Positions 3,895 through 10,177 of a DNA stretch of 64,000 bases are shown here, piece by piece. The translations under genes and the position numbers were made by a program. Source of the DNA: Candidatus Poribacteria bacterium (GTDB taxonomy: Bacteria > Poribacteria > WGA-4E > WGA-3G); NCBI GenBank assembly GCA_965205015.1, contig OZ242029.1, forward strand, positions 4,224,001 through 4,288,000, written 5' to 3'. The notes under the pieces were generated by a model. That model did not search any database and was not told the origin of the DNA. It saw nothing but the letters and a program-made list of their open reading frames with translations. The stretch's first letter is position 1. Each line of letters begins with the position of its first letter.

Positions 3895-5448
3895 TTATCC
3901 TTCCGAACGGATTTGGATTAACTTATTTACGGCGTGGATGTAAGCCCGTGCGCTCGCTTCGATGATGTCGGTGCTCGCACCGTGTCCGGTGATGATGTGT
4001 CCGTTGTCTTGGACCTTCAATGAGACCTCACCGATAGCGTCTTCCCCTTCGGTTACGGAACGAATCTGATAGTCGATGAGGTTTAGTTGAATGTCGACAA
4101 TTTGACTGATCGCTTTAAACGCCGCATCTACAGGTCCGTCGCCGGTTGAGGCTCTCTCAACGACACCCTCTTCCGTCCGAACACCAACGGTCGTTGTCGG
4201 TGAGATTCTCGTTCCACTGACAATTTGGATATAATCCAACTCAAAAACAGCAGGAATGGCGCGAATCTCATCGCTCATGATCGCCTCAAGATCGGCATCC
4301 TGCACGGCTTTCTTCTTATCAGCAACCCGCAAAAACCTTTCATAGACTTTTTCCAGCTGATCCGCGTCCACTTCATAGCCGAGTTCGCTGAGTCGGTGTC
4401 TGAGAGCATTACGTCCGGAACGTGGGCTGAGAATCAGTTGACTCTCTTTCCATCCGATCTCTTTCGGATCAATGATTTCAAAAGTCACACGCGATTTGAT
4501 GATACCGTCTTGATGGATGCCCGAACTGTGTGCGAATGCGTTCGCACCGACAATCGCTTTGTTCGGTTGAACGGCAATACCCATCGTCCGACTCACACGC
4601 CTGCTGATCGGAACGATTTCTTTGGCGTTAATATCGGTATAATATGCTTTAAAGTAATCTCGGCGGGTTCGGATCGCCATAACGACCTCTTCCAACGAAG
4701 TATTACCAGCCCGTTCTCCGAGTCCATTGATTGTGCACTCGACCTGCCGTGCGCCCTGCTCAACTGCTATAAGACTGTTCGCTACTGCTAAACCGAGGTC
4801 GTTATGGCAGTGTACACTAATAATGGCATCGTTAACATTTGGGACATTCTCCATGATGCCCTTAATTAAATCGCCAAACTCCGTTGGCACTGTCCATCCG
4901 ACGGTTTCCGGGATATTGATGACGGTCGCCCCCGCAGCGATCGTCGCTTCGACGACTTCATAAAGGAAGGCTAATTCCGTCCGTCCCGCGTCCATTGGTG
5001 AAAATTCGACATTCGCATCCGGGTGTCCTTCGCACAAACGTTTGGCATAGGCGACCGCGTCGGTTGCCATTTGCAATGTATCTTCAGGGGTTGTCCGTGT
5101 AATGCGTCCCATGTGAATTGGTGAAGTTCCGACAAAAGTGTGGATACGGGCGCGTGGTGCATCCTTAATAGCTGCCCATGCGGCAGTAATATCTTTCTCC
5201 ACAACGCGAGAGAGGGCACAGATTTCCGGTCCTTCAACTTCGTTGGCTATCCGTTTGACCGCATCGAAATCCCCCGGCGACGAAATTGGGAATCCGGCTT
5301 CAATGATATCAACATTTAATTTCGCGAGGTGCTTGGCAATCTCCAGTTTTTCCTCAATACCGAGTGCAGCACCGGGGGTCTGTTCAGCATCGCGAAGCGT
5401 TGTATCGAAAATATAGACTTTCTGCGGGTTGTTTTGAAAATCGTCCAA
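3895..5448 (-). CDS. leuA: 2-isopropylmalate synthase
   Basis: [29 protein letters not shown] motifs and C-terminal regulatory domain (GDGPVDA). Confidence 0.95.
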
Positions 5449-5469
5449 AGCTCTATTCCTCCAATTTAG

Positions 5470-5598
5470 AGTCGTCAGTTATCAGTTGCCAGTCGTCGGT
5501 TAAGAGTACCCGTGTAACAAGCGGTTCCTTAGGATTGGAAGCACGCCAAGAAGGGGGAATGTGTTGCAAAAACCTCTTAACTGAAAACCGAAAACTAT
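5470..5598. repeat. Heptamer/inverted-repeat element between aroF and leuA
   Basis: GTCGTCAGTTATCAGTTGCCAGTCGTCGGTTAAGAG ... CTCTTAACTGAAAACCGAAAACT. Confidence 0.7.
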
Positions 5599-5601
5599 TC
5601 C

Positions 5602-6627
5602 CTACATTTCACGACCAACGGCAATCGCTATTGATTTCAGTTCCTGCATGAGGGTCTCGAATTGATCAGGGAACAGCGACTGTGCACCATCTCCTGTCAT
5701 TGAATGATCTGGATCGTGATGGACTTCAAGTAACAGTCCATCTGCGCCTGCCGCCACAGATGCCTTTGTCATATCACAGACGAGACTCCGGATACCCGTG
5801 CCGTGGCTCGGATCCACAATAATAGGCAGATGGCTCAATTCGTGAATAACAGGTACTGCGTTCAAATCAAGGGTATTACGGGTATGCGTTTCAAAAGTCC
5901 GAATGCCCCGCTCGCAGAGAATGACATCGGGGTTTCCTTCTGCGAGAATATATTCAGCGGCGAGGAGCCATTCTTCAATTGTTGCCGACATTCCGCGTTT
6001 GAGGATGACAGGCTTATTTGCTCGTCCCACTTCGCGCAACAGATAGAAATTCGTCATGTTCCGCGTGCCGAGTTGAAACATATCTGTATATTCACCAACG
6101 AGTTCAACTTCGTGTGGTGTCATGACCTCAGTGACGATGCCGAGTCCTGTTTCGGCTTTCGCTGCTTCCAGCATCTTAAGAGCCTCTTTACCGTAGCCTT
6201 GGAAACTATAAGGTCCGGTTCTCGGTTTAAAAGCGCCGCCTCTGATGAAACTCGCACCGGCTTTTCGGACCTGTTGCGCAATGGTTACGATCTGTTCCGT
6301 GCTTTCTACTGCGCACGGACCGGCAATGACGGGTACCTGCCGTCCACCAATTTTCGTGTCGTTGACTGCAATAACCGTCGGTTCATCCCGAAACTCACGG
6401 CTTGCCAATTTGAACGGTGCCGTAATTGGCATCGTCCGATCGACCCCCGACATTGACTCTATCGGAATATCACCAAGCAATGTTTTATCTCCTATGACAC
6501 CGATGACAGTGTGTCTCTCACCGACTGAGACTTGTGCTTTCAAGCCTGCATCTTCGATCCGTTTTACAACAGCGTTGACATCTGCTTGTGTCGCATCGGT
6601 CTTGGTAACAATTACCATCCTTTTCAA
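5602..6627 (-). CDS. aroF: DAHP synthase, type I-beta with N-terminal ACT/ferredoxin-like regulatory domain
   Basis: [41 protein letters not shown] motifs; GGAGG RBS before a TTG start. Confidence 0.93.
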
Positions 6628-6645
6628 CTACCTCCGCCTTTTTAA

Positions 6646-6740
6646 TAGTTTTCAGTCTTCAGTCTTCAGTTTTCAGTTAAGAGGTTTTCGTTTAAAAGTT
6701 CCCTCTTTAACTGATAACTGACAACCGATGAGCGATAACC
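6646..6740. repeat. Heptamer/inverted-repeat element in the aroF leader
   Basis: (TTCAGTC/T)x4 then TTAAGAGG ... CCTCTTTAACTGATAACTGACAACCG. Confidence 0.7.
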
Positions 6741-6807
6741 ACTCTTCCGATGAATGACAACCAATACACCGAAAGATAATTCTGTCTGTCGCAAATGAAA
6801 CTCGGTT

Positions 6808-6848
6808 AAAAAAAATACCCAACATTGAAATCTTTTTCAACGCCGGGT
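6808..6848 (-). terminator. Rho-independent attenuator terminator upstream of aroF-leuA
   Basis: Minus-strand ACCCGGCGTTGAAA-AAGA-TTTCAATGTTGGGT forms a 14-bp stem with G-U pairs, followed by A and 8 U. Confidence 0.85.
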
Positions 6849-6900
6849 GGTGATACTGGAATCGGTTAATCTTTGTAATATGGGCATTACCTGCGAACTT

Positions 6901-7083
6901 TCACCACCTGTCGTTGCTGTACAAATATAAGTACAGGTACAGATACAATCCAAAAAGGCCTGTGCTTGTAAGTCGCGTAAAAAGGGACCCTGCGTAGGAG
7001 GAAGCGTTCCCTAAAGAGATTGAAACAGCACGGACGTGAGGTATCTGTATTGTGGTAGTATTACGTAGAAGTGTTCGCATCAT
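6901..7083 (-). CDS. Putative Leu/Tyr-rich attenuator leader peptide (60 aa)
   Basis: AGGAAA-TTG-ATG-ATG start; peptide ends LFGLYLYLYLYLYSNDRW; stop region is complementary to the 5' arm of the terminator. Confidence 0.75.
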   Translation of the reverse strand: MMRTLLRNTTTIQIPHVRAVSISLGNASSYAGSLFTRLTSTGLFGLYLYLYLYLYSNDRW

Positions 7084-7273
7084 CAATTTCCTAAAAATTA
7101 GGGCACTCAAAAAATCGACCCTAATGCGCTGAAAGCAAATGCCGCTATCAAAGCGGACCTCTTTGTAACCTAAGACGTTATTTCTGGAAAAGTGTTTATG
7201 CTTTTTGATATAGGCACGCGTTTTGTCATCCAAAATCCCATGCCCTATTATAATACCTGACCAATTTTATTAT

Positions 7274-7302
7274 ATAATAACACATTTTTTTTCGCAAGTC
7301 AA
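7274..7302 (-). promoter_or_regulatory. Sigma70-type promoter for leader-aroF-leuA
   Basis: TTGACT-17 nt-TATTAT with TGn extended -10. Confidence 0.6.
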
Positions 7303-7359
7303 ATTTCTTTTTTCTCCAACCCTAGGTAAAGTGTCAATTTCTCAGCCGATCAAATAGCG

Positions 7360-7388
7360 TTGACTCCTAAATTAAGGTGTGTTAATAT
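7360..7388 (+). promoter_or_regulatory. Sigma70-type promoter for the uridine kinase-like gene
   Basis: TTGACT-17 nt-TAATAT with TGn extension. Confidence 0.5.
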
Positions 7389-7404
7389 AGGAAAAGAGGA
7401 CAGT

Positions 7405-8070
7405 ATGGAGAAAACTATGCCGAAACCAGAACACTTTACACCGATTACCGTTGGGATTATGGGCGGCTCCGCCTCTGGAAAGACGACGTTCGCGAGTGCC
7501 TTAGCGGAACAACTCACGGATTTATTGCCTGTTGTGCTGAATCAGGACTCCTATTTTCGCGATTGGTCGGAATACTCGGAATCGGAACGGGAACGCGTCA
7601 TCACGGCGAATCACCCGGATGCCGTCCTATGGGATGCCCTCATCGCGGACATTAAGAAACTCCGCAATGGCGATACGATCAACACACCCACCCCCGGCAC
7701 GCGTGCCGCGCAACGCGGCGACGCAAAAGCGAGCGTGCAACCGAGCAAAGTCGTTATTGTGGAGGGACATCTCATCTTCTGGAGTGAAGATTTACGAGAC
7801 TTGATGGACATGAAACTGTTCCTTGATGTAGATGCACATGAACGCGTCCTGCGCCGGATGCTCCGTGATGTTGCACAACGCGGGGGTGATTTGGAGTGGT
7901 GTATTAATTGGTATCGGCGCGATGTCCTCCCTAACTTTCCAGTCTATACCGAACCCTGTAAGCAGTATGCTGACCTGATTATCCCGTTCCAAGATGACAA
8001 TCCAGTCGCATTGCACACGCTGGTCGCTGGTATCCGTGCCCGGATCGCAGAACACAGCGGAACATCTTAA
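7405..8070 (+). CDS. Uridine kinase-family P-loop kinase
   Basis: GIMGGSASGKTT, QDSYF, HPDA, VIVEG, RRMLRD, EPCKQYADLIIP. Confidence 0.8.
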   Translation: MEKTMPKPEHFTPITVGIMGGSASGKTTFASALAEQLTDLLPVVLNQDSYFRDWSEYSESERERVITANHPDAVLWDALIADIKKLRNGDTINTPTPGTRAAQRGDAKASVQPSKVVIVEGHLIFWSEDLRDLMDMKLFLDVDAHERVLRRMLRDVAQRGGDLEWCINWYRRDVLPNFPVYTEPCKQYADLIIPFQDDNPVALHTLVAGIRARIAEHSGTS

Positions 8071-8445: not shown

Positions 8446-8898
8446 ATGACTTACTTAACAACGCGCAGACCGATGAGAAACCTGTTCAGCCTCCACAACG
8501 AGATGGGACGCATTTTTGGAGACCTCTTCGCTCCCCACGAAAACGGAACGGATACGGAAGAAACCTCTTGGATGCCCACGGTAGACATCTCTGAAACCGG
8601 AAACGGGTACGAAATCCGAGCCGAACTTCCCGGTGTCTCCGAAGACGATGTCAATGTCTCCCTAACCGACAACGTCCTCACCGTCAAAGGTGAGAAACGG
8701 CAGGAAGCGGAAACGGAAGGCAAGAATTACCATCGTGTGGAAAGACGATACGGCAGCTTCCAACGGAGTTTCACACTACCGAGGCACATTGAAACCGATG
8801 CCATCAAGGCAGAATTCAAGGACGGTGTCTTGACACTCGGAATTCCGAAAGCGGAAGCGGCGAAACCGACTGAAGTCCCGATCAAAGTAAACGCTTAA
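8446..8898 (+). CDS. Hsp20/alpha-crystallin small heat-shock protein
   Basis: PTVDISET, AELPGV, ERRYGSFQRSFTLP, FKDGVLT. Confidence 0.95.
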   Translation: MTYLTTRRPMRNLFSLHNEMGRIFGDLFAPHENGTDTEETSWMPTVDISETGNGYEIRAELPGVSEDDVNVSLTDNVLTVKGEKRQEAETEGKNYHRVERRYGSFQRSFTLPRHIETDAIKAEFKDGVLTLGIPKAEAAKPTEVPIKVNA

Positions 8899-8999
8899 AC
8901 CAACAGCTTGGGTATGCCTCGTAACTTGGACGGTTCACGAGGCTACCCTTAGCGTACATGAAACACACGAATTACGAAGTACACGAAAGGAGAATGAAA

Positions 9000-9431
9000 A
9001 TGACTTATTTGACGTTACGCAGACCAACAAGAAATCTCTTCAGCTTCTACAGCCCGTTTTTCACACCTCAACGCACAAGGAACGATGCGGACGGATACAG
9101 TTGGACACCCTCAGTTGATATTTCGGAAACAGACGAGAGTTTTGAAGTCCGCGCTGAACTCCCTGGGGTCGCAAAGGACGATATTCATGTCTCTGTCAAA
9201 GATAACCTCTTGACGCTCCGCGGGGAGAAACGGCAGGAGAAGGTGGATGACCCCCAAAATTATCGCAGCGTTGAAAGGCGGTACGGCAGTTTCCAACGGA
9301 GATTTACACTTCCATCGGAAGTAGAAACAGGCGACATCAAAGCCGAATTTAGCGATGGTGTGTTGACGCTCGCTATCCCGAAGCCGGAAGCCGTAAAACC
9401 GACCGAGATCCCTATCACAACTGTATCGTAA
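9000..9431 (+). CDS. Hsp20/alpha-crystallin small heat-shock protein (tandem paralog)
   Basis: Same motifs; both proteins start MTYLT; AAGGAG RBS. Confidence 0.93.
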   Translation: MTYLTLRRPTRNLFSFYSPFFTPQRTRNDADGYSWTPSVDISETDESFEVRAELPGVAKDDIHVSVKDNLLTLRGEKRQEKVDDPQNYRSVERRYGSFQRRFTLPSEVETGDIKAEFSDGVLTLAIPKPEAVKPTEIPITTVS

Positions 9432-9508: not shown

Positions 9509-10177
9509 CTACGCCTCCGCTTTGTCTTTTAAGACACCGATATAGAGGCGCGCGGCGAGGATGGCACCGACGAGCGGTCCCACAAAATAGAGCCAGATGT
9601 CCGCATAGTTCCCGCTGACAATGGCGGGTCCCAAGGTCCGTGCGGGGTTCAGTGAAGCCCGGGTCAAGGGTCCCCCCATGACGATACAAAACATCAGCCC
9701 CAACCCGATAGCGAGTCCTGCGAAGTTCCCTGCTTTCCCGCTTACAGCAGTATTGAAAATGGTATTGACGAGGAAGAAGGTGAGTACGATTTCGACGATA
9801 AGTCCTTGTGTTGCAGTAACCGTGAAGGCGCCGCCATTCGCCGCTGTGGTTAGAATCGTCACACCCAGATCGCCAGGATCGGGTAGCACGATATTAAGCA
9901 AAGCTGCCCCCAAAATTCCGCCAAGAAACTGCACAATCCAATAGCCGATCGCTGCGGTGAATTCGATTTCGCCTGCTATCCAGAACGCCAGTGTCACAGC
10001 CGGATTGATGTGTGTGCCGGAGATATGTCCATACGCATAAATAAACGCGATAACGACGAAACCGTGAGCGCATGCTGCCCCAATTAAACCGCCTGCACCT
10101 ATCGCGACTGCGCCTGCACCGATAAAGATCAGCGCGAAGGTACCAACAAATTCGACAATTAAGCTTTTCGTATTCAT
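9509..10177 (-). CDS. MIP-family channel (aquaporin)
   Basis: Two NPA motifs (HINPAVT, SLNPART) and EFVGTF. Confidence 0.95.
   Translation of the reverse strand: MNTKSLIVEFVGTFALIFIGAGAVAIGAGGLIGAACAHGFVVIAFIYAYGHISGTHINPAVTLAFWIAGEIEFTAAIGYWIVQFLGGILGAALLNIVLPDPGDLGVTILTTAANGGAFTVTATQGLIVEIVLTFFLVNTIFNTAVSGKAGNFAGLAIGLGLMFCIVMGGPLTRASLNPARTLGPAIVSGNYADIWLYFVGPLVGAILAARLYIGVLKDKAEA

Follow-up and report, generated by a model that had tools for sequence, protein, structure and literature searches.

The stretch of DNA analysed here, called the window below, comprises 64,000 nucleotides (nt) of contig OZ242029.1 (assembly GCA_965205015.1) from a Candidatus Poribacteria bacterium, a sponge symbiont; coordinates refer to it unless a locus is named. 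On the minus strand, the 790 nt that separate the DAHP synthase gene aroF from a divergent uridine-kinase-family gene contain the elements of what we consider, with a probability of roughly 0.8, to be a ribosome-mediated (leader-peptide) transcription attenuator controlling aroF and the adjoining leuA gene. These elements run from a promoter-like site through a small open reading frame (ORF), which ends in alternating Leu and Tyr codons, to a terminator whose 5' arm can pair instead with the end of the ORF. They are as follows.

7274-7302, minus strand: promoter-like site with -35 TTGACT, a 17-nt spacer and a TG-extended -10 TATTAT (10/12 matches)
7089-7092, minus strand: Shine-Dalgarno-like AGGA, 8 nt before the conserved ATG
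6901-7083, minus strand: leader ORF ending FGLYLYLYLYLYSNDRW, stop TGA at 6903-6901; 60 codons from the ATG at 7083 or 59 from the ATG at 7080
6919-6948, minus strand: regulatory tract of five Leu codons alternating with five Tyr codons (TTG TAT CTG TAC CTG TAC TTA TAT TTG TAC)
6917-6936, minus strand: small 6-bp hairpin in the tract (CUGUAC / GUACAG), part of the minimum free energy (MFE) fold of the window sequence
6901-6915, minus strand: region 2, the antiterminator 5' strand, formed by the last four sense codons and the stop (AACGACAGGTGGTGA)
6839-6853, minus strand: region 3, the antiterminator 3' strand, whose last 10 nt are the terminator 5' arm (TCACCACCCGGCGTT)
6808-6848, minus strand: intrinsic terminator with a 14-bp stem (6848-6817), a 4-nt loop and U8 (6815-6808), from fold and scan

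An earlier note on this DNA had described the promoter at 7302-7274, the ORF at 7083-6901 with its C-terminal end F-G-(L-Y)x5-S-N-D-R-W-stop, the ten tract codons at 6948-6919, the pairing of the last 15 nt of the ORF with 6853-6839 at 13/15 positions across the terminator 5' arm, and the 14-bp hairpin followed by eight U at 6848-6808. All of these descriptions hold. The promoter coordinates are correct, the ORF was confirmed base by base, and the genes downstream, which the note had named as DAHP synthase and 2-isopropylmalate synthase, have the domains of these enzymes. Conservation of the ORF in related loci, which the note had proposed as a check, was likewise found, as described below.

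The leader open reading frame and the proposed RNA switch

A scan of species-representative genomes based on the DAHP synthase yielded 80 loci (L001-L080). In L001-L039 the enzyme is 73-98% identical to that of the window and 37 of the 39 sequences carry a Poribacteria title, the other two (L002 and L017) being titled 'uncultured bacterium'. L040-L080 come from other phyla and their enzymes are 51-58% identical. Among the 40 sequences formed by the window and L001-L039, two fall outside the comparison of the leader ORF, namely L036, which has a different leader, and L039, which offers only 128 nt of upstream sequence (its terminator is included within these). The leader comparison set therefore contains 38 sequences, the window and 37 loci with the leader region present, of which 24 belong to clades A and B and 14 to clade C. 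The alignment used for RNA helices contains 36 sequences; L026 and L038, whose displaced stops were missed by the filter, were left out.

A homologous leader ORF is found in 38/38 related sequences that contain the region, and takes 13 different lengths between 43 and 84 codons. In 38 of the 40 sequences its start is a conserved ATG preceded by AGGA, and its end lies at or beside the motif AGGTGGTGA. The window has adjacent ATGs at 7083 and 7080, the second of which is the one conserved in relatives; the AGGAAYTTGATR-ATG context is kept in clades A and B, and clade C has AGGA or GGAG variants. From the ATG to a nucleotide anchor (RGTRGTG) there are 12 different distances, all of them equal modulo 3 (38/38), whereas the untranslated interval that follows, from this anchor to CCCRRYGTYG, takes 10 values with remainders distributed 21/11/6. 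The reading frame has no internal stops, and the other two frames average 1.8 and 2.1. Many of the insertions and deletions in the ORF do not alter the number of LY units, among them events of 12, 18, 42 and 72 nt. Comparison of these sequences supports the view that the small ORF between the promoter and aroF is selected for translation.

The terminator hairpin of the window folds at -18.2 kcal/mol (z -3.64), with 0/200 shuffled sequences as stable. A 47-nt spacer lies between the leader stop and the hairpin region, and the U-run is located about 93 nt after the stop. The antiterminator, in which AACGACAGGTGGTGA (6915-6901) pairs with TCACCACCCGGCGTT (6853-6839), is paired in 84.7% of 537 cells of the alignment, compared with 27-62% after shifting the partner strand by 1-3 columns. 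Compensatory change is seen at two column pairs: 58/145 (A-U 19, G-C 12, G-U 3, unpaired 2) and 63/140 (U-A 24, C-G 7, unpaired 5). Cells changed on both sides number 19, against 7.1 +/- 2.4 in shuffled alignments, and 0/500 of these reached that value. Both 3' columns also form part of the terminator; there, wobble takes up the change (A-U to G-U, U-G to C-G), so that only the antiterminator shows full Watson-Crick compensation. At column 63, the third base of an Asp codon (GAC/GAT), a synonymous change tracks an RNA partner 77 columns away. The earlier note had looked to covariation in both stems; it is present in the antiterminator, as these two compensatory pairs, and the terminator is paired in 96.5% of 486 cells with its changes absorbed as described.

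When the sequences are folded from region 2 to region 3 only, omitting region 4, the strand with which region 3 forms the terminator, the 2:3 helix appears in the MFE structure of 36/36. Its energies range from -15.5 to -25.9 kcal/mol, against -12.8 to -19.7 kcal/mol for the terminator hairpins of the same 36 sequences. RNAalifold applied to the whole alignment of 36 sequences returns the terminator together with a 7-bp helix whose register is shifted by 3 and which has no compensatory pair of its own in this alignment. This shifted helix can coexist with the terminator; we read it as the 'off' conformation and do not count it against the 15-bp register.

GGUGGUGA (6901-6908) paired with UCACCACC (6846-6853) forms the invariant core of the antiterminator. 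This pairing is one base off that between the Shine-Dalgarno sequence and the 3' end of 16S rRNA; that the translating ribosome might also pair with the final part of the leader ORF is pure speculation. The small hairpin in the tract is paired in 88.9% of cells, with two pairs changed on both sides, which does not exceed the shuffle control. In clade C its place is taken by another hairpin, of 5 bp and followed by U5; either of the two might be an RNA polymerase pause site.

In the proposed mechanism, transcription would start from the conserved promoter and a ribosome would translate the 59/60-codon leader behind the polymerase. On reaching the UGA this ribosome would cover region 2, allowing region 3 to pair with region 4, and the resulting 14-bp hairpin with its U8 would end the transcript before aroF. 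A ribosome stalled on the Tyr (probably also Leu) codons of the tract, 12-45 nt upstream, would leave region 2 free to pair with region 3 before region 4 is made; the terminator would then not form, and aroF and leuA would be transcribed. With its A site on one of the first seven or eight tract codons (6948-6925) the ribosome would end at least about 10 nt before the GGUGGUGA core, which would be free, whereas a stall on the last one or two tract codons would still cover region 2. More LY units would provide more productive stall sites, which fits the variable number of units among relatives. Stalling, its effect on read-through and co-transcription of leuA are steps that we infer from the arrangement and conservation of the elements.

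Leucine and tyrosine codons as probable inputs

Tyr and Leu each account for 5/10 codons of the tract, as compared with a background of 3.4% and 9.1%, respectively, in 36 long ORFs of the window. Given this composition and the fact that the arrangement is kept in relatives, the tract is beyond chance. Counted from the stop, positions -12, -10, -8 and -6 hold Tyr in 24/24 sequences of clades A and B, with TAT and TAC both in use, and it follows that Tyr is under strong selection. Sensing of Tyr by the leader is well supported by this selection on the codons and, provided that the leader is an attenuator of this kind, nearly certain. The alternating positions hold Leu in 18-22 of the 24 sequences. 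Apart from position -7, which uses TTG only, they use 2-4 synonymous codons, including pairs that are two steps apart (one position holds TTA, CTT, CTG and TTG). The number of LY units varies from 3 to 6, and in the 14 sequences of clade C the tract is shorter, typically L-G-L-Y-P-F-L-Y-C/Y-G-G-R-W. Judged from these counts, Leu is favoured in the tract but replaceable.

A further line of evidence comes from the operons in which such leaders are found. The leuA gene lies directly downstream of aroF in 39/39 Poribacteria-type loci and in 0/41 of the others. Among the 39 non-Poribacteria loci with at least 150 nt of upstream sequence (L040 and L078 are too short), four possess leader ORFs with Phe/Tyr runs and terminator-like hairpins before the DAHP synthase gene. 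Three of the four hairpins were caught by a crude terminator scan and the fourth is visible in the fold. The leaders are as follows.

L041 leader: MRQLMGKGIARSWRFYFYYFAHVCPPALK
L048 leader: MNSRFYFYYFGAFTTGP
L060 leader: MRTSAWRGGFFSFYFGEVCPAL
L065 leader: MTAEERKVTSCYSYRYYYYYRGSRDRSP

The runs among these four leaders include RFYFYYF, FFSFYF and YSYRYYYYY, and none of the runs contains Leu. As a set, their hosts are an uncultured bacterium, two Acidobacteriota and one Methylomirabilota. In L048 and L065 the next gene encodes a prephenate dehydrogenase-chorismate mutase fusion (aroF-tyrA operons), L041 has two DAHP synthase genes in tandem, and leuA is downstream in 0/4. Like the window, these loci have an enzyme of the same subfamily (ferredoxin-like domain followed by DAHP_synth_1), preceded by a small ORF that contains a run of aromatic codons and by a terminator-like hairpin. 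They differ from it in that their leaders have only 17-29 codons, contain a tract without Leu, precede no leuA and are unrelated in sequence by eye. The codon content of the leader thus appears to follow the content of the operon, with Phe/Tyr before aroF-tyrA and Leu/Tyr before aroF-leuA. This is the best argument for Leu as a real input, although on the Leu side it comes from one lineage.

Taken together, these comparisons make it somewhat more probable than an even chance that Leu is a second real input. We also lean, slightly less firmly, towards the fuller picture of a two-input OR gate in which a shortage of Leu or of Tyr would act on one switch, the gene pair and its leader having arisen together in the Poribacteria. 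Both enzymes have allosteric domains which, judging from what is known of their families, would correct cross-induction at the level of the enzyme. An OR gate over Leu and Tyr was also the proposal of the earlier note: its Tyr part is supported by the invariant positions, its Leu part is softer, and the gate itself is what we infer from the two.

Several observations weigh against the attenuator as proposed, or against Leu as one of its inputs. In the N-terminal two thirds of the peptide the excess of differences at third codon positions is only weak. Pairwise differences at the three codon positions number 551/558/687 for clade A, 450/401/539 for clade B and 439/405/458 for clade C, and the synonymous share of single changes is 30-40%, so that the evidence for translation rests on the frame and not on protein-like conservation. 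Classical leader peptides typically have about 14-32 codons, and the leader here is 3-4 times longer. The stop is displaced in some relatives, lying 3-4 codons later in L026 and L038 and one codon earlier in L034 and L035. A classical 1:2 helix, in which the tract would pair with region 2 as suggested by the fold of a single sequence, is not supported, being paired in 67.5% of cells and not above shuffles; the attenuator architecture claimed in the earlier note is supported by the frame, the compensation in the antiterminator and the adjacency of aroF and leuA, but not in this element. In addition, the compensatory changes probably derive from only two or three evolutionary events, and for this reason we regard them as support and not as proof.

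The RNA evidence is also limited in kind. Two sponge metatranscriptome runs contain related sequence at small shares (0.10 and 0.06), as contigs of related strains. RNA contigs span aroF, leuA and 6845-6962, and 7199-7420 is without a contig. One RNA contig of 495 nt bridges the terminator (6778-6927), and another joins the end of aroF to the start of leuA, skipping 138 nt. Assembled contigs are the sole RNA evidence; 3' ends, levels, strand and the existence of a single transcript are not readable from them, and DNA carry-over is possible. As for Leu, depending on the position, 2-12 of the 24 sequences of clades A and B carry F, V, M, W or P in its place; the commonest substitute is Phe, which the pathway opened by aroF also yields. 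Changes in the copy number of the 6-nt LY unit could also carry Leu codons along passively.

These last points lead to the alternative that survives best, although we consider it doubtful: the same attenuator would sense Tyr (aromatic supply) only, the Leu codons being passengers, either as filler from expansion of the 6-nt unit or as part of the GUAC hairpin, and leuA would merely be co-expressed. Tyr is invariant where the Leu positions drift, and by our own count the latter show about 9 synonymous to 10 non-synonymous codon states, which is only mildly better than neutral. The variable unit number, the overlap of the tract with a hairpin that is paired in most cells of the alignment, and the occurrence of Tyr/Phe-only leaders before DAHP synthase in other phyla all agree with this alternative. 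It does not readily explain why Leu is retained through two-step synonymous changes at a single position, or why the short tract of clade C still keeps L-Y-P-F-L-Y. Nor does it account for the confinement of Leu to the lineage with leuA in the operon, given that there is no Leu in the four non-Poribacteria tracts.

It is improbable that the ORF is an independent gene for a small hydrophobic protein, with its own promoter and terminator, aroF being transcribed from another promoter or by unregulated leakage. The length of the ORF (43-84 residues), its hydrophobic C-terminal half and a recurring W-x-L-F-T motif would suit such a protein. The sequence evolves in a near-neutral manner, however, and the peptide has no Pfam or NCBIfam family (by profile search, the homology search being limited to these two collections). 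A frame that is kept open around a barely conserved peptide sequence is what would be expected of a leader peptide and not of a functional small protein. Furthermore, the stop codon lies inside a helix that competes and covaries with the terminator. Two loci, L013 and L022, were scanned for promoters: on the coding strand promoter-like sites occur only upstream of the leader ORF, with none between the terminator and aroF, whose ATG follows the end of the U-run by about 55 nt. The ORF is never found apart from aroF. Its motif occurs once in G001, the complete chromosome that carries L001 and whose DAHP synthase is 98% identical to that of the window, and a pattern scan of metagenomes gave 10 matches, six of which are chance matches without a leader and four the same Poribacteria-type leader, with no new diversity.

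Slightly less probable again is that the leader RNA responds to a metabolite, a tRNA or an RNA-binding protein reading the repeated UGUAC/UAY words, the open frame being incidental. UGUAY does recur every 6 nt in the tract as an RNA motif, an untranslated block farther upstream is conserved, and the Poribacteria use a T-box elsewhere. Against this, the frame is kept through 12 distances in all sequences when the adjacent spacer is not, and TAT/TAC and synonymous Leu changes break the RNA word and keep the amino acid. Rfam gave no match in the whole window at gathering score, and at E values up to 10 the region 6500-7500 showed no T-box, riboswitch, amino-acid leader or other family; as a positive control, the same search tool finds a T-box (98.1 bits, gathering 93) before ilvB in G001. 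Least probable of all is a TnaC-like nascent-peptide arrest device that would keep region 2 covered and favour termination, for although R-W-stop is invariant in 24/24 sequences of clades A and B and, without a 1:2 helix, something must cover region 2 after translation, pairing with UCACCACC accounts for the R-W-stop nucleotides, 4/38 sequences have a displaced stop, and the C terminus lies anywhere from about 17 to about 31 residues beyond the conserved Trp of W-x-L-F-T. Nothing in the sequence requires an arrest.

The operon and its surroundings

The remaining features of the locus are located on either side of the switch.

5602-6618, minus strand: aroF-type DAHP synthase, type I-beta, N-terminal ferredoxin-like regulatory domain followed by DAHP_synth_1 (domain search)
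3895-5448, minus strand: leuA, 2-isopropylmalate synthase, HMGL-like domain followed by the allosteric domain LeuA_dimer (domain search)
5449-5601, minus strand: spacer between aroF and leuA, with no site found in a scan for terminator-like sites
6652-6735, minus strand: variable spacer between the terminator and the ribosome-binding site of aroF, containing a long hairpin of a dispersed repeat and lying outside the switch (fold)
7171-7198, minus strand: conserved block of the 5' untranslated region (TAAAC..TTT..AACGTCTTA), about 28 nt (strict regular expression)

The leuA product matches the 2-isopropylmalate synthase equivalog TIGR00973 at 697.6 bits (cut-off 598.7), and in G001 aroF encodes the sole DAHP synthase (one DAHP_synth_1 match, no type II match). 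Among relatives the spacer between aroF and leuA is as short as about 22 nt (in L020); the sequence of L023 ends after 116 residues of leuA. The next gene, of the leucyl aminopeptidase family, is convergent (plus strand), so that the unit consists of two genes.

The spacer between the terminator and aroF measures 137-282 nt and differs among relatives; its greater length in the window and in several relatives is due to inserted dispersed repeats. Such short repeats are located in spacers after terminators and before ribosome-binding sites, in the window at 6652-6735 and about 5470-5506 (minus strand), and between the terminator and aroF also in L001, L005, L011 and L015. The window has a hairpin-forming unit, and several relatives have two to three tandem copies of a repeat unit of about 39 nt, which is found as its reverse complement between the T-box terminator and ilvB as well (L086). 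Many DNA contigs from runs X3 and X6 break or join at these repeats, which look like elements of the REP (repetitive extragenic palindromic) or MITE (miniature inverted-repeat transposable element) type.

In the window the promoter-like site overlaps a TATAAT box within 7297-7269 (minus strand), and a TTGAC-N16-18-TA..AT box is found upstream of the leader ORF in 27/38 sequences by a strict regular expression. The untranslated leader between promoter and ORF is about 185 nt long. Its best-conserved stretch across the three clades is the block at 7171-7198, which a strict regular expression recovers in 29/38 sequences, from all three clades; seven sequences were missed, and two further matches, in L014 and L024, look spurious by eye. 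The distance from the promoter to this block varies from about 15 to about 75 nt among relatives, and its pattern has one match in the window against 0.02 expected. A role as a genome-wide operator or regulon motif was rejected, since G001 contains four matches and a reversed control two. Possible roles of the block are those of an operator, a processing site or a second promoter. The divergent uridine-kinase-family gene starts on the plus strand at an ATG at about 7417. Beyond it are two adjacent Hsp20/alpha-crystallin genes (8446-8898 and 8958-9431, plus strand) and an aquaporin-family (MIP) gene (9509-10177, minus strand).

The most distant Poribacteria-type locus, L036 (73% identity of the DAHP synthase), keeps aroF-leuA and lacks the Leu/Tyr leader. 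Its upstream region (L036:3760-4000, plus strand) contains a consensus promoter and an ORF of 34 codons that lacks a Leu/Tyr run. Directly before aroF stands an 18-bp hairpin between an A-run and a T-run (a two-way terminator), with a fold z of -5.0, and the region matches no Rfam family. In G001 the T-box and a terminator precede ilvB (L086:1049-1341, plus strand), which encodes the large subunit of acetolactate synthase (790.8 bits), and the specifier candidate chosen by eye is GUC (Val). The phylum thus uses a tRNA-sensing T-box for its branched-chain operon and, as we propose, a leader peptide for aroF-leuA. Inspected by eye, G001 shows neither a Trp-rich ORF upstream of trpE nor an intergenic leader in front of leuC.

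Comparison with known systems

Studies of leader-peptide attenuators have dealt almost entirely with Proteobacteria and Actinobacteria, and with leaders that serve a single pathway or connected ones. The present case is conserved across an uncultivated candidate phylum, and the codons of its leader mirror an unusual operon that joins the entry enzymes of the aromatic and the leucine pathways. It offers an example of regulatory logic following the fusion of genes into operons, and single nucleotides reveal how coding and RNA pairing constrain the sequence together. If the proposed mechanism is correct, it suggests that Poribacteria monitor the charging of their own Tyr and Leu tRNAs and hence make both amino acids themselves. 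The compact switch might also provide a Tyr/Leu-responsive part in a heterologous host.

The T-box is comparable to the proposed switch in that it reads tRNA charging and chooses between terminator and antiterminator. Unlike the proposed switch, it does not need translation, and it has a conserved stem I, specifier loop and T-box sequence. Multivalent leaders are represented in Escherichia coli by ilvL (Ile/Val/Leu) and thrL (Thr/Ile), in which a shortage of any of the amino acids relieves termination. These resemble the window in that a single leader contains codons for more than one amino acid, but they serve connected pathways, whereas the two pathways concerned here are unrelated and joined only by the aroF-leuA pair.

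With the attenuators trpL, pheL, leuL and hisL the window shares a promoter-proximal ORF, a run of cognate codons, a stop beside the antiterminator 5' strand and a competing terminator before the first gene. The spacing from stop to terminator end in the trp leader is also similar to the value of about 93 nt seen here. In contrast to these, the leader has no Rfam relation, has 43-84 codons, lacks a supported 1:2 helix, strictly alternates codons of two amino acids in the window and belongs to the Poribacteria. How such leader-peptide attenuators of enterobacterial amino-acid operons work is summarised in PMC2659441 and PMC11802643.

A functional likeness exists to Corynebacterium glutamicum, where a leader with Phe-Tyr-Phe, aroR, precedes aroF (PMC11802643 and PMC4046766, both citing Neshat et al. 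2014). It too is a leader with aromatic codons before a DAHP synthase gene, and shows that the first enzyme of the aromatic pathway can be attenuated by the ribosome. The aroR leader as described in these passages has three aromatic codons and no Leu, and leuA of C. glutamicum has a separate leader of its own with four Leu codons (PMC4046766). Availability of Tyr is stated to be without effect on the C. glutamicum aroF operon in the passage of PMC11802643 concerned. In the window, by contrast, there is one operon and one interleaved leader, and the Tyr codons are invariant; going by the description of aroR, the likeness is one of function.

A search of literature full texts (in part among the best-ranked matches only) returned no description of a Leu/Tyr leader, in agreement with the earlier note, of an isopropylmalate synthase-DAHP synthase operon with a leader, or of attenuation or a leader peptide in Poribacteria. 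Since the Phe-Tyr-Phe leader of aroR was already known, we place the novelty of the system below the estimate of that note. Ribosome-mediated attenuation as a mechanism, and a Tyr/Phe leader before DAHP synthase as in C. glutamicum, are thus established; what is new is the interleaving of Leu and Tyr codons, the Poribacteria-specific aroF-leuA operon, the length of 43-84 codons and the visible compromise between coding and pairing.

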